DNA of 64,000 nucleotides from an uncultured Acidobacteriota bacterium (lineage in GTDB: Bacteria; Acidobacteriota; Vicinamibacteria; Vicinamibacterales; 2-12-FULL-66-21). Each line of letters opens with the position of its first letter. Position 1 is the first letter of the stretch. A program made the translations under genes and the position numbers. Below the pieces are notes generated by a model that was not told the origin of the DNA, searched no databases, and saw nothing but the letters and a program-made list of their open reading frames with translations. Shown here in pieces: positions 20,685-35,337 of the stretch. The stretch is from positions 6,602 through 70,601 of the forward strand of contig CAWJYM010000006.1 of assembly GCA_963847125.1 (NCBI GenBank). The letters run 5' to 3'.

Positions 20685-22640
20685 TTGACTGTGGCGAGTC
20701 GAAGCATCGATCTGGCGGAGACGTCTCGGCTGGCAATCGAGGCGTTGCCGAGCGGCGTTCTGATCGCAGACGTCAACGGCACGATTGCGCTCGTCAATCG
20801 CGAGCTGGAACGACAGTTCGGCTACACGCGCGCGGAGCTCGTCGGACAGAACGTCGATCTGGTGCTGCCCGAGGCCTCGAACCTGATTCACGCCGCGCAC
20901 CCGGCAGGTTTCGAGCACGCCCCCTCGGCGCCGATCATGGGAGCCGGCCGTGAGCGTTTCGGCCGCCGCAAGGACGGTTCGCAGATCCAGGTGGAGATCG
21001 GGCTCAGACCGGTCCAGCTCGCGGATAGCTTCTTCGTGCTCGCTTCCGTCGTGGACACCACGCAGCGCGACGAGCTGGAACGCGTCCGCCAGGCCGCCTT
21101 CGAGGAACAGCTCGAGTTCGAGCGGTTCATCGCCGAGCTGTCAGGTCAGTTCATCAATCTCGACGCCGACCGGATCGACGAAGCGATCCGGAGTGGTCTC
21201 GGCCGCATCTGCGCGCAGCTCGGTCTGGACCGAGGCAGCTTCTACCGGATAGGACCGGATGGCGAGCTCTTCGTCGATTGCGTCGGCTGGGTGGCGCCCG
21301 GCGTGCCACCGATCGACGGGCCCATTCCTGCGAAGGAACGGCTGCCCTGGGCGCTCGGACGGCTCCGTGCGGGGGAGGTCGTGTCCTTTTCGACGCGCGA
21401 CGACGTGCCGAGCGACGTCGATCGCGCCAGCTACGCGGCGCTCGGCATCCGGTCGGCACTGGTGATACCCCTGTCTGTCGACGACCGCATCGAAGGCGCA
21501 GTGGGCTTCAACGCCGTACGCGAGGACCGGCCGTGGCCGCCGGAGGTCGTGCACCGCCTCGAGGTCGTCGCGGGCGTGTTCGCGCAGCTCCTGGCGCGGC
21601 AGCGGCGTGACGAGGCGCTGCGCGCCGCGACGGCCGAAGCGCAGCGTCTGAAGGAGCAATTACAGTCGGAGAACGTGTACCTACGGAGGGAGGCGCGGGA
21701 ACGTCTGGGGCCCAGCCGCGCCGTGGGCCAGGGCGCCGCCGTGCGGTTAGTGCTGGAGCAGATCGAGCAGGTCGCGGCGACCGATTCGACGGTCCTGCTG
21801 CTGGGGGAGACCGGGACGGGAAAGGAGCTCTTTGCGACGCAGATCCACGAGCTGAGCGAACGTCACGGCCGGGCGATGGTCAGGGTCAACTGCGCGGCGA
21901 TCCCGGCGACGCTGATCGAGAGCGAGCTGTTCGGGCGCGAGAAGGGGGCTTTCACAGGCGCGCTGGCGCGGCAGGTCGGTCGCTTCGAGCTGGCGGATCA
22001 CTCGACGATCTTCCTCGATGAAATCGGCGATCTGCCCCCCGACGTGCAGGTGAAGCTGCTGCGCGTGCTCGAGGAACGACAGATCGAGCGGCTGGGCAGT
22101 CCGCGGCCGATCGCGGTGGATACCCGGATCATCGCCGCCACGCACCGGAACCTTGAGCAGCGGATCGCGGAGGGCCTCTTCCGGGAAGATCTCTACTACC
22201 GGCTGAGCGTGTTTCCCATTCACGTGCCGCCTTTGCGCGAGCGCGTCGAGGACATTCCGCTGCTCGTCTGGCGGTTCGTGGAGGAATTCTCGAAGGCGTT
22301 CGGCAAGCGCGTGGACTCCATCGACAAGGACAACCTCGTGGCCCTGCAGCAATACGCGTGGCCCGGGAACATCCGGGAGTTACGCAACGTCGTGGAGCGC
22401 GCGATGATCGGCGCGACGGGCCCGCGGGTGACCATCGCGCTCCCGCAGCCGACGCCGGCAGCGAGCCGCCGCAGCGGGAAGCTCGTCGACGTCGAGCGAG
22501 AGCACATCCGGAGCGTGCTCGAGGGCACGGGCTGGAGGATTCGAGGCCCCGGCGGGGCGGCCGAGCGGCTCGGAATGAAGCCCACGACCCTCGAGACGCG
22601 AATGGCAAAACTCGGGCTCAGGCGCCCCGGCCACCGCTAG
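20685..22640 (+). CDS. sigma-54-dependent transcriptional activator, PAS-GAF-AAA+-HTH (bEBP-1)
   Basis: Intact 651 aa. Contains GETGTGKE Walker A, the GAFTGA loop (EKGAFTGA), and the C-terminal [26 protein letters not shown]. Confidence 0.85.
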   Translation: MTVASRSIDLAETSRLAIEALPSGVLIADVNGTIALVNRELERQFGYTRAELVGQNVDLVLPEASNLIHAAHPAGFEHAPSAPIMGAGRERFGRRKDGSQIQVEIGLRPVQLADSFFVLASVVDTTQRDELERVRQAAFEEQLEFERFIAELSGQFINLDADRIDEAIRSGLGRICAQLGLDRGSFYRIGPDGELFVDCVGWVAPGVPPIDGPIPAKERLPWALGRLRAGEVVSFSTRDDVPSDVDRASYAALGIRSALVIPLSVDDRIEGAVGFNAVREDRPWPPEVVHRLEVVAGVFAQLLARQRRDEALRAATAEAQRLKEQLQSENVYLRREARERLGPSRAVGQGAAVRLVLEQIEQVAATDSTVLLLGETGTGKELFATQIHELSERHGRAMVRVNCAAIPATLIESELFGREKGAFTGALARQVGRFELADHSTIFLDEIGDLPPDVQVKLLRVLEERQIERLGSPRPIAVDTRIIAATHRNLEQRIAEGLFREDLYYRLSVFPIHVPPLRERVEDIPLLVWRFVEEFSKAFGKRVDSIDKDNLVALQQYAWPGNIRELRNVVERAMIGATGPRVTIALPQPTPAASRRSGKLVDVEREHIRSVLEGTGWRIRGPGGAAERLGMKPTTLETRMAKLGLRRPGHR

Positions 22641-22663
22641 GCCTCGGCTCGTGCCTTCTCAGG

Positions 22664-22697
22664 CTCCGGCATGCCGTGGCCCCTCTGCGATACCGGG
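22664..22697. promoter_or_regulatory. degenerate half-site copy of the 28-bp motif (site E)
   Basis: CTCCGGCATGCCG at 22664 and GATACCGG at 22689. Only the right half of the motif is recognisable. It lies about 115 bp upstream of P8. Confidence 0.25.
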
Positions 22698-33207: not shown

Positions 33208-33350
33208 GGCCCGCATGAGCTACCTGCCCTAAGGTCCCATAGACGCCCCTCGTTCGCTTCCCTATGCTGGCCCGGTCCTTTTTCGAGACATCTGAAGATG
33301 GAAGCGGGCCCTAGATGCGGGTGTAGACTCAGCCAACCGTCCAACCCGAT

Positions 33351-35337
33351 ATGTCAGAACGACCCTGGATCCAGTCCCAGACTGGATCCGCCACGCTCGG
33401 CGCGAAGTTAACGGGTCTCTTCGGTCTCGCGGCCGAATCGATACCGAGCGGCATTCTTGTCGTTGATCCCGTTGGCACCATCGTGCTGGTGAACCATCAG
33501 CTCGAGCGACAATTCGGGTACTCACGCGAGGAGTTGCTCGGGCAGTCGGTTGAGACCCTTCTGCCCGAAGTCTGGCGCGCCGTCCATGCGATGCACCGTG
33601 AAGGCTTCCAGAGGGTGCTCGACGTCCGGGCAGGTCTCGAAAAAGATCTGCACGGCCGCCGCCGCGACGGCAGCGCCTTCCCCGCAGAGATCAGCTTGAT
33701 TCCTTTGCAGACGGAGGAGGGCATCTTCGTCCTCGGCTGCATAGTTGACATGACGACGCGCCTGGAGGCCGCCAGGCTGACGGTCGAACGACAGCTGGAC
33801 TTCGAGCGGCTCATCGCGGAGCTGTCATACAAGTTCATCAACCTGCCTTCGGATGAAGTCGTCGAGGCGATTTTCGACGCGCTCCACCGAATCGGCGAAA
33901 CGCTCGATCTCGATCGTTGCTCCTTTTACACGGTTCAGCCCGATGGCGACCTGCTCGCTCCGATCAGTTGGTGGCGCGACAGCATCCCGCCGCGGCTCGC
34001 GGTGACTTCGGCCAGAGAGCACTTCCCGTGGGCGAACGAAACGATCCTCGCCGGCCGGTTGCTGTGCTTTTCCACGATCGAGGAAGTCCCGAACCGCGTG
34101 GACCGCGCCGGCTACCTGGGAGACGGCATCCGCTCTTCCGTGACCGTCCCCTTGTCAGTTTCGAATCGAGTCGTCGGGGCGATGGGGTTCGACACGATCG
34201 AAAAGGAACGCGAGTGGACCGCGGAAACGCTCCATACCCTGAAGGTGATCGCCACGGTTTTCGCCAGCGTCCTTGCGCGCCTGGAGGGCGACAAGGAGCT
34301 GCGTCAGGCCATCTCGCAGGGGGAACGGATTCGCGATCGGTTGGACGCGGAAAACAAATATCTCCGCCGCGAGGTCCAGGCGCGCCTCGGCTCCGGGACT
34401 GTCATCGGCCGGAGCGCGGCGGTGGGCCGCGCCCTGGAGCAGATCCGGCAGGTGGCGGCCACCGATTCGACCGTGCTGCTCCTGGGCGAGACCGGCACCG
34501 GCAAGGAGCTGTTCGCGACGCAGATTCACGAACTGAGCGCGCGACGCGATCGGCCGATGGTGCGCGTGAACTGCTCGGCGATTCCCGCCACGCTCATGGA
34601 GAGCGAGCTGTTCGGCCGCGAGAAAGGGGCCTTTACCGGCGCCCTCGCGCGGCAGATCGGCCGCTTCGAGCTGGCGGATCACTCGACGATCTTCCTCGAC
34701 GAGATTGGCGACCTGCCGGCGGACGTCCAGGTCAAGCTGCTTCGGGTGCTGGAGGAGCGGCAGATCGAGCGGCTCGGGAGCCCGAAAGGCATCCATGTGG
34801 ACGTGCGGATCATCGCGGCCACGCACCGGGATCTCGAACAGCGAATCATCGATGAAGCGTTCCGCGAAGACCTGTTCTACCGGCTCAACGTCTTTCCCAT
34901 ACGCGTGCCGCCGCTGCGGGAACGCCTCGAAGACATTCCGCTTCTGGTCTGGCGCTTCGTCGAGGAGTTCTCGATCGCGTTCGGCAAGCGGATAGAGACG
35001 ATCCCGATGGAAAACATGCAGGCTCTGCAACGGTATGCATGGCCGGGCAACATTCGCGAGCTCCGCAACGTGGTCGAGCGCGCGATGATCGTGGCAGCCG
35101 GCACGCGTCTGACGATTGCGCTCCCCGCGTCGAAGACCGCGGCGCCCGAGAAACGCAGCGCAAAGCTGGCCGAGGTCGAGCGGGAGCACATTCACGGCGT
35201 GCTGCGAGAGCACGGCGTGGCGCATTCGTGGAGCGGGCGGCGCGGCGGACCGGCTCGGGCTCCGGCCCACCACGCTCGAGACGCGGATGGCCAAGCTCGG
35301 GCTCAGGCGTCCCAGCAGCCCGTCCTCGGTCCACTAG
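33351..35337 (+). CDS. sigma-54-dependent activator, PAS-GAF-AAA+-HTH (bEBP-3; frame break near 35211)
   Basis: ORF 33351..35471 loses the HTH. Removing one C at about 35211 gives ..[42 protein letters not shown], ending at 35337 (frame of ORF 35116..35337). Confidence 0.8.

Follow-up and report, generated by a model that had tools for sequence, protein, structure and literature searches.

A 35-bp enhancer-like element probably shared by paralogous PAS-GAF activators in a predicted sigma-54 regulon of Vicinamibacterales

A repeated element beside sigma-54 promoters

The stretch of DNA analysed here (64,000 nt, hereafter the window, whose positions serve as coordinates throughout), which comes from an uncultured soil bacterium of the order Vicinamibacterales (Acidobacteriota), encodes three paralogous bacterial enhancer-binding proteins (bEBP-1, bEBP-2 and bEBP-3) with PAS and GAF sensor domains, and carries five intergenic copies (A to E) of a 35-bp element next to operons that include those for an F1Fo ATP synthase, for aspartate:alanine exchange and decarboxylation, and for several envelope proteins. 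The explanation that we consider likely, as far as sequence can tell, is that this element is an enhancer shared by the paralogous activators, which would together control a sigma-54 regulon. The mechanism is canonical sigma-54 enhancer control; what appears to be new is the regulon content, its order-wide conservation and the probable use of a single enhancer by several paralogues.

The core of the element, ATTCCGG-N5-CTCCG-N6-CGG, occurs exactly four times in the window (at 9154, 19889, 31182 and 37340), each time in an intergenic region and on the + strand, and not once in 100 shuffles of the window, a statistic that is post hoc because the pattern came from these same sites; the independent evidence is conservation in other genomes. 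A first-pass annotation, made from the sequence alone, had described these occurrences as four 28-bp sites, which are exact but represent merely the core of the element, and had overlooked the fifth copy. When the window sites were extended and set against 16 matches to the exact core from related loci, a full element of 35 bp emerged, with the consensus CTCCGGtATTCCGGAg-nnn-CTCCGcGATgCCGGAG. This element can be described as four alternating CCGGAG half-sites with a spacing of 10-9-10 bp or, alternatively, as a pair of 16-bp palindromes (CTCCGG-N4-CCGGAG) centred 19 bp apart. The extra CTCCGG half-site lies 5' of the original 28 bp in A, B and C, and is degenerate in D. Since this 5' CTCCGG and the 3' AG, both outside the seed pattern, are also conserved in relatives, ascertainment is no explanation for these positions. 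A position weight matrix (PWM) built from the window sites and the exact-core matches of related loci recovers all four sites together with copy E, whose score of 20.0 compares with at most 11.1 in shuffles and which recurs as the same degenerate variant at the equivalent position in 18 relatives. The sequences flanking the window copies are not repeated.

The second component is a set of predicted sigma-54 promoters, identified with a -24/-12 matrix that was used to scan both the window and the related loci. Nine -24/-12 elements (GG-N10-GC, with matrix scores of 10.4-15.8) adjoin the five copies, each facing the nearby gene and conserved in relatives, and one of them (37268-37283) is identical in sequence in L001, L039 and L057. 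All matches in the window that score 12.7 or more have a copy of the element 113-128 bp away, including the promoter at 22796-22811, the sole strong promoter that had stayed unpaired until E was found. The first-pass annotation had placed its four sites 58-119 bp from one or two -24/-12 elements, and the matrix bears out the elements themselves but not the distances, which for A-D are 43-104 bp from edge to edge. Taken together, two palindromes, a -12 element 72-131 bp from their centre and helical periodicity make up a tandem-dyad geometry of the NtrC type. Between copy C and bEBP-2, no -24/-12 element was found with the matrix and no sigma-70 consensus at the threshold of the tool used, and no sigma-54 promoter lies between bEBP-2 and bEBP-3, so that neither of these two genes has one in the window; in some relatives, a sigma-54 promoter is present between the two.

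Start codons lie 12-25 nt past the -12 element at atpB, ABM, DUF3302 and probably DUF3011 (19745-19784, 22796-22826, 31050-31083 and 9031-9060, respectively), which implies very short or absent leaders, and the spacing before atpB is similar across 13 genomes. One further sigma-54 match (7200-7215) was rejected as a false positive, as it is located inside the frameshifted amidohydrolase gene.

Conservation of sites and promoters among relatives

Conservation was assessed in 77 loci retrieved around bEBP-2 homologues, about 57 of which are from Vicinamibacterales/Acidobacteriota metagenome-assembled genomes (MAGs); all the related sequences come from uncultured MAGs or metagenome contigs. Two MAGs with other labels, L011 (Bifidobacteriaceae) and L051 (Acidimicrobiia), have a gene content that is Vicinamibacterales-like, in L011 with copies of the element as well, and are probably mis-binned or mislabelled.

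The exact core is found in 14 of the 77 loci. With the matrix, Vicinamibacterales-like loci yield 104 unique sites, 90 of which (87%, against 2.6% by chance) have an outward-facing -24/-12 element whose -12 GC is 40-140 bp away from the middle of the site. The commonest distances are 115-116 and 125-130 bp, and smaller clusters occur at about 71, 81, 91 and 105 bp, so that the values are spaced by roughly a helical turn. The converse also applies, since 72 of the 125 strong -24/-12 matches in Vicinamibacterales-like loci have an upstream site, in contrast to none of the 29 in loci from other phyla. When the atpB/sec196 spacer is aligned for 13 genomes, just three conserved blocks stand out, which correspond to copy B and both promoters. 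The site-promoter architecture noticed in the first-pass annotation is thus conserved in related genomes.

Three layouts recur: (i) in about 20 genomes, the atp operon, a promoter facing left, the element, a promoter facing right, sec196, bEBP-1, a second element/promoter pair, ABM and PPK2; (ii) the DUF3302-HlyD-OEP (outer-membrane efflux protein) operon with its promoter and element, adjoining bEBP-2/bEBP-3; and (iii) the DUF4136 operon and the operon for the SpoIIAA-like and 731-aa proteins, which flank a single copy of the element. These modules swap neighbours among genomes and retain their own element and promoter, which we regard as the strongest argument for membership in the predicted regulon. 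The ABM-PPK2, DUF3300/DUF2950 and 286-aa protein-MscS modules, which form one operon in the window, each have their own site and promoter in other genomes.

A motif-first analysis, in which metagenome contigs were scanned with a pattern blind to promoters and activators, found a matrix match in 110 of 120 contigs, and a correctly placed promoter for 100 of 140 sites. The first genes downstream make up the same set as in the activator-based loci and include atpB, the commonest (13), DUF3302 (8), ABM (7, plus about ten divergent ABM-like open reading frames [ORFs]) and sec196 (5).

Activators, recognition helix and half-sites

The three proteins that are the candidate ligands of this element each contain, according to Pfam, PAS, GAF, Sigma54_activat (PF00158, E-values of 1e-68 to 1e-72) and AAA_lid_14 domains, with invariant GETGTGKE and GAFTGA motifs, and HTH_8 is detected in bEBP-1 and bEBP-2. 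The first-pass description of three PAS-GAF-AAA+ activators ending in a helix-turn-helix (HTH) is therefore correct in its domains, except that the bEBP-3 gene as given is frameshifted: its interval of 1987 nt is not a multiple of three, and the Fis-type HTH, which lies in the +1 frame past position ~35208, is present only once the frameshift is corrected. This is a probable assembly error, because the gene is intact (661 aa) in L001, a 94%-identical relative, and because many window genes are similarly broken. Other single-base frameshifts affect PPK2 (23430-23575), the SulP transporter gene (11517-13324, in three frames), the amidohydrolase gene (7204-7444), the DUF3011/porin gene (~8200), the gene for the secreted protein after copy A (9321-9433) and atpD (14800-14917). 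Many related contigs derive from long-contig MAG assemblies, and the window frameshifts are more suggestive of error-prone long-read assembly than of pseudogenes.

Identity by domain between the paralogues is 44-52% for PAS, 47-55% for GAF and 81-86% for AAA+, with a near-identical HTH core, which agrees with the original remark that the HTH regions are nearly the same and the sensor parts diverge. As judged by NCBIfam equivalogs against their curated cut-offs, these proteins are unnamed members of the bEBP family, nearest to FhlA by sequence (369 bits against a cut-off of 830) and below the cut-off for every equivalog, including NifA (356 against 529), NorR (332 against 476), NtrC (284 against 559), ZraR (268 against 760) and PspF (262 against 443). 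Of the named families, FhlA scores best over the AAA+ and HTH domains; it has a GAF-type sensor, and its HTH (...RLGLKxTTLxSRMKxLGI) is one that we take to be of the same subtype. The activators are not FhlA orthologues, because their score is far below the cut-off; in addition, they have an N-terminal PAS domain, and their predicted regulon is unrelated to hydrogenase.

The nature of the signals was approached through the PAS domain. In a search of solved structures with the PAS domains of bEBP-1 and bEBP-3, the top 13 matches were to FixL/DosP (best E-values of 1e-12 to 1e-13), and the proximal His of haem-PAS domains aligns in both proteins. Together with the cytochrome bd target in L027 (see below), this is what makes haem/oxygen sensing attractive. 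The idea was nevertheless rejected, and is retained merely as a weak lead, because this His is not conserved: it is kept in about 60% of orthologues and replaced by Q, E, D, L, R or P in the remaining ~40% of aligned relative PAS sequences, and it falls within the segment that is deleted in bEBP-2.

The link between activators and element comes from the HTH. At all three paralogue positions defined by synteny, and in more than 60 proteins altogether, the HTH of this clade hardly varies; the activators with other HTHs, which come from other phyla, lie in loci without sites. Within the half-site NCGGAG, whose first base was left unconstrained in the search pattern, this variable base is C in 56% and T in 19% of half-sites in loci with the ETRMAKLG helix, and T in 93% of those in loci of a sister group with ESRM(K/Q)KLG, found in the metagenome sample. 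The sister-clade helix PTTLESRMKKLG hence accompanies TCGGAG, not CCGGAG, half-sites. This covariation, together with the enhancer-like position, makes binding of the element by these activators the most economical reading, and it is very likely that the element is the enhancer (upstream activating sequence) of this activator clade. The competing view that another protein binds the element, or that it is a dispersed non-regulatory repeat, could draw on the post hoc nature of the window statistic and is very improbable in the face of (i) the fixed distance and helical phase to sigma-54 promoters, (ii) footprint-like conservation in otherwise unconserved spacers, with flanks that are unrepeated, and (iii) the covariation with the activator HTH.

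The sister regulon, in which PTTLESRM(K/Q)KLG activators go with enhancer-like elements of the form CTCCGAnATTTCGGAG-nnn-CTCCGAnATnTCGGAG, i.e. a one-base change per half-site, was seen in metagenome contigs (L088, L091, L093, L104, L107, L115, L134, L138, L149, L163, L178, L183 and L186), where its targets include sulfatases and a radical-SAM maturase. Another activator clade, with the HTH WRIxGxGNAAxxLxLHPNTLRFRMKKLGI, is encoded in the same genomes as the ETRMAKLG activators, often downstream of the 731-aa gene (L007 19658, L010 19750, L012 19847, L036 18699 and L053 1993; also L050, L051, L054 and L055). A MASE1-PAS-PAS histidine kinase is encoded in the window at 51664-54093, outside the regulon region and with no copy of the element nearby.

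Whether all three paralogues use the element is a separate question, to which we would answer yes with modest confidence. The first-pass proposal that three sensors converge on one operator class fits the near-invariant helix and has to accommodate site variants that are kept per target across genomes: four good half-sites at atpB/sec196, CCGTGG...CTCTGC...CCGGGG at ABM, and a strong central CGGAG-GAA-CTCCGG with weak outer half-sites at DUF4136/SpoIIAA-like. Because the recognition helix is identical, these variants are best read as affinity tuning, and they may leave room for a graded or paralogue-biased response. They could also be paralogue-specific operators, with only one or two of the paralogues using the enhancer, or with mixed rings of the kind formed by HrpR/HrpS. 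In Pseudomonas syringae, these tandem sensor-less paralogues act on the same enhancer and function only as a mixed ring. The operon-specific variants persist across genomes whose activators are just ~60-65% identical, bEBP-2 and bEBP-3 are in tandem, like hrpR/hrpS, in the window and in at least ten relatives, and there are small differences beside the recognition helix (LGMK, LGLR or LGLK; ETRM or ETRL). Against this, the helix itself is identical or nearly so in the three paralogues and the >60 relatives, all site variants keep the same four-half-site frame, a real helix difference (ESRMKKLG) comes with a half-site change and, unlike HrpR and HrpS, each paralogue carries its own PAS-GAF sensors, which makes such a division of labour unlikely. 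We therefore retain use of the element by all three paralogues, which differ in their sensors and have the same recognition helix, and which would most probably convey different inputs to a single regulon.

Several observations weigh against the shared-enhancer explanation as a whole. The adjacency of sites and activators is partly built in, because the related loci were picked around activator homologues, a selection bias that the motif-first scan lessens without removing it. The association between HTH and half-site (Fisher p ~1e-34) is uncorrected for relatedness among the sequences. Two points speak against a single operator class in particular: ETR-type genomes have TCGGAG half-sites too (the 19% mentioned above), and the target-specific site variants could mean differing paralogue preferences. 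Among solved structures, the GAF domain has no informative relative and the HTH search was likewise unhelpful, and a search of the window and all fetched loci revealed no RpoN box.

By analogy with well-studied systems, activator dimers would bind the palindromes via their Fis-type HTH (of the FhlA subtype), an active AAA+ ring would assemble once the sensor domains permit, and DNA looping from an enhancer on a fixed helix face would allow remodelling of sigma-54 RNA polymerase at the -24/-12 element. The closest parallel for the enhancer is NtrC at glnAp2, where tandem dyads ~100-140 bp upstream of the -24/-12 element nucleate the AAA+ ring from dimers and act by looping, but NtrC is controlled by phosphorylation of a receiver domain, instead of PAS-GAF, and recognises TGCACC-N5-GGTGCA. 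A single enhancer would often fire two divergent promoters, and the sec196-bEBP-1 operon would, being driven from copy B, be positively autoregulated. This resembles ZraR at zraP/zraSR, where one enhancer region serves two divergent sigma-54 promoters, one of which is for the activator operon, and where there are also envelope targets; the difference is that ZraR is a two-component response regulator. In contrast, the absence of a -24/-12 element before bEBP-2, with copy C 70 bp from its start codon, suggests that this gene may be autorepressed as in pspF-pspABCDE, where the enhancer is likewise between a sigma-54 operon and a divergent activator gene that has no sigma-54 promoter.

Composition of the predicted regulon and its physiology

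The genes that would be controlled from the five copies are listed in Table 1. The regulon put forward in the first-pass annotation (Asp:Ala exchange and decarboxylation, F1Fo ATP synthase, PPK2/MscS and envelope operons) gains support from footprinting, the excess of correctly placed promoters, module shuffling and HTH covariation. Families were assigned with Pfam and NCBIfam, which gave no match for sec196, sec198 and the 362-, 286-, 183- and 731-aa proteins.

Table 1. Features of the window (five copies of the element for nine -24/-12 promoters); bp distances are from the -12 GC or -12 element to the centre of the copy named
Feature	Position	Strand	Details
Leftward operon of A	2..9061	-	same gene order after site and promoter in L008, L037 and L047
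Aspartate 4-decarboxylase	2-1114, cut by window edge	-	NF006755, 535 against cut-off of 321; TIGR03801, 528 against 435
Asp:Ala antiporter	1142-2845	-	TIGR03802, 604 against cut-off of 547
Type II asparaginase	2857 to ~3840	-	NCBIfam, above curated cut-off
Glutaminase A	3956-5005	-	NCBIfam, above curated cut-off
Secreted amidohydrolase	ATG 7444 to 5027	-	frameshifted; ATG 8 nt past porin stop
DUF3011/porin-like outer-membrane protein, first gene of A operon	7453-9061	-	frameshifted; Pfam
Predicted sigma-54 promoter, leftward of A	9045..9060	-	TGGCACCGCGCGTGCT; score 14.0; 117 bp from A
Putative enhancer A	9147..9181	+	CTCCGATATTCCGGAGCACCTCCGGTATAACGGCA; PWM 36.9; first-pass site A is 9153-9180
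Predicted sigma-54 promoter, rightward of A	9269..9284	+	TGGCATGTCGGGTGCT; score 14.3; 118 bp from A
Secreted protein	ATG 9321, frameshifted into 9433-10029	+	downstream of 9269 promoter
Porin-like ORF	10041-11126	+	downstream of 9269 promoter
SulP/STAS transporter, directly after atp genes	11517-13324, three frames	-	Pfam Sulfate_transp, STAS
F1Fo ATP synthase operon, atpBEFHAGDC	13321-19745 (operon 11517..19745)	-	Pfam ATP-synt_A, ATP-synt_ab, ATP-synt_DE
Predicted sigma-54 promoter of atpB	19769..19784	-	TGGCACGCGCCGTGCT; score 15.8; 128 bp from B
Putative enhancer B	19882..19916	+	CTCCGGTATTCCGGACGTTCTCCGCGATGCCGGAG; four half-sites intact; PWM 49.8
Predicted sigma-54 promoter of sec196-bEBP-1 operon	19999..20014	+	TGGTACGTCTGCTGCA; score 12.7; 113 bp from B
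sec196, 196-aa protein, signal-peptide-like N-terminus	20084..20674	+	no family match; co-transcribed with bEBP-1 in nearly all relatives
bEBP-1	20685..22640	+	PAS-GAF-AAA+(GAFTGA)-HTH_8, 651 aa; Pfam
Putative enhancer E	22664..22698	+	CTCCGGCATGCCGTGGCCCCTCTGCGATACCGGGG; PWM 20.0; fifth copy
Predicted sigma-54 promoter of ABM/PPK2 operon	22796..22811	+	TGGAACGGCTGGTGCT; score 12.7; 128 bp from E
ABM-PPK2-DUF3300/DUF2950-286-aa membrane protein-MscS operon	22824..27778	+	Pfam; PPK2 frameshifted
DUF3302 (ATG 31052)-HlyD-type adaptor-outer-membrane efflux protein operon	27706..31052	-	Pfam; conserved with site and promoter
Predicted sigma-54 promoter of DUF3302 operon	31068..31083	-	TGGCACGGCGGCTGCT; score 15.8; 122 bp from C
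Putative enhancer C	31175..31209	+	CTCCGCTATTCCGGGTATGCTCCGGGATACCGGAG; PWM 43.9; 70 bp upstream of bEBP-2 start codon
bEBP-2	31279..33207	+	PAS-GAF-AAA+-HTH; PAS without 14-residue segment present in bEBP-1 and bEBP-3
bEBP-3	33351..35337	+	PAS-GAF-AAA+-HTH; +1 frameshift near 35208 parts HTH from rest in assembly
DUF4136 lipoprotein (36661-37218)-183-aa helical secreted protein-glycine-zipper protein operon	35334..37218	-	Pfam; synteny
Predicted sigma-54 promoter of DUF4136 operon	37268..37283	-	CGGCTCGACAATTGCA; score 11.2; 80 bp from D
Putative enhancer D	37333..37367	+	ACACGGCATTCCGGAGGAACTCCGGTCCAGCGGAG; PWM 36.3; central half-site pair strong, outer weak; class conserved
Predicted sigma-54 promoter of SpoIIAA-like operon	37409..37424	+	GGGCACAATCCCTGCT; score 10.4; 72 bp from D
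SpoIIAA-like (STAS-fold) and 731-aa protein operon	37455..40093	+	Pfam, NCBIfam

The atp operon, which is conserved with its site and promoter in about 20 MAGs, encodes an F-type ATP synthase and not an N-ATPase, as seen from the atpBEFHAGDC order without atpQ/atpR and from the c subunit (...AFAEAIVFYAL), which has no Ser/Thr after the Glu and whose ion site we take to be of the proton type. Subunits a, alpha, beta and epsilon were identified by Pfam and c by NCBIfam, while b, delta and gamma were assigned by gene position and sequence. The operon leftward of A has intergenic gaps of less than 30 bp (27 bp between the antiporter and decarboxylase genes). Its last two products are both above the equivalog cut-offs for AspT/AspD (TIGR03802/TIGR03801) and their genes are adjacent in one operon, like the known pair, in which Asp:Ala exchange and decarboxylation generate proton-motive force (pmf). 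The difference is that the pair here ends a long sigma-54 operon with porin, amidohydrolase, glutaminase and asparaginase genes, and that its enhancer type is shared with an ATP synthase operon.

Relatives add targets with equal geometry: cytochrome bd oxidase subunit I, a PTA_PTB enzyme, L-serine dehydratase, an Orn/Lys/Arg decarboxylase, an aspartase/fumarase-class lyase, an aquaporin, an HtrA-like protease and OmpA-family proteins. In L027, the cytochrome bd subunit I gene (~1100-2480, - strand; site at 2532) replaces the atp operon, is divergent from sec196-bEBP-1 and comes with a sigma-54 promoter of its own, at a distance of 71 bp from the element's centre.

In relatives whose activators reach only ~65% identity, the 731-aa protein (37898-40093) still shows 73-96% over the main matching regions. 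It contains three ...GPW... repeats and ends in a tail that is rich in Gly/Tyr and has repeats of YNPRTGTYA, and its gene is always preceded by the SpoIIAA-like gene and a copy of the element. DUF3300 and DUF2950 occur in a single 735-aa ORF (23941-26148), which is either a real fusion or an indel artefact; a literature search on these two families returned nothing useful.

What this gene set is for can be approached by comparing it with known circuits. The first-pass annotation had proposed, by analogy, a Psp-like circuit sensing and restoring envelope or pmf damage. There are indeed many envelope targets (porins, DUF4136 and glycine-zipper proteins, an efflux adaptor with its outer-membrane channel and MscS and, elsewhere, HtrA-like and OmpA-family proteins), other targets generate or use pmf, and the layout at copy C resembles pspF-pspA. 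The analogy nonetheless does not hold up, and we consider such a circuit improbable: PspF is sensor-less and controlled by PspA, but the regulon genes that were scanned with Pfam/NCBIfam gave no PspA-family match; the sensors here are cytoplasmic PAS-GAF domains of the activators themselves, with no membrane-linked partner found; the PspF model score is well under its cut-off; and catabolic targets such as asparaginase, glutaminase, aspartate decarboxylase, serine dehydratase, a phosphotransacetylase-type enzyme and cytochrome bd are un-Psp-like.

These catabolic genes could instead point to a regulon that serves chiefly amide/acidic amino-acid nutrition, with ATP synthase and envelope genes being secondary. 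A precedent is AauR of Pseudomonas, a sigma-54-dependent system for acidic amino acids/amides, and the set of periplasmic asparaginase, glutaminase, amidohydrolase, Asp:Ala antiporter and aspartate decarboxylase, with the aspartase-type lyase and serine dehydratase of relatives, would fit it. This is rather unlikely, however, since the strongest and most widely conserved copy of the element is at atpB/sec196-bEBP-1, many targets are unrelated to amino-acid use, and the window shows no glnA, amtB or glnK.

What recurs among the targets is energy conservation from amino acids, the synthesis of ATP, respiration at low oxygen and the outside of the cell. The regulon would couple periplasmic Asn/Gln deamidation and electrogenic Asp:Ala exchange/decarboxylation with ATP synthase and PPK2, and with envelope, efflux and channel proteins, and we tentatively suggest, as one possibility, that limitation by energy, low oxygen or acid switches the cell to generating pmf and ATP from amino acids. 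A bolder version, about which we are more doubtful, is that Vicinamibacterales have placed their main (perhaps only) F1Fo ATP synthase, a pmf-generating amino-acid pathway, low-oxygen respiration and much of the envelope under obligatory sigma-54 control, with at least three PAS-GAF paralogues, whose common helix would predate the diversification of the order, bringing differing signals to one enhancer type. A literature search, itself incomplete, returned no report of a sigma-54 regulon in Acidobacteria/Vicinamibacterales, nor of an atp operon that depends on sigma-54.

Vicinamibacterales rank with the most abundant bacteria of soil and have barely been cultured, and a regulon that is readable from sequence, with a clear motif and geometry, offers a handle on their physiology. 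It would (i) reveal the co-expression partners of ATP synthase, i.e. Asp-driven pmf, polyphosphate kinase 2 and cytochrome bd, (ii) provide a natural example of multiple sensors converging on a single operator, (iii) offer a helix/base covariation that is directly testable (ETRMAKLG with CCGGAG, ESRMKKLG with TCGGAG) and (iv) tie large, highly conserved but functionally uncharacterised proteins, such as the 731-aa protein, sec196 and DUF3300/DUF2950, to a defined regulon. If the bolder version were true, the members of this order would share a sigma-54-based switch of energy mode.

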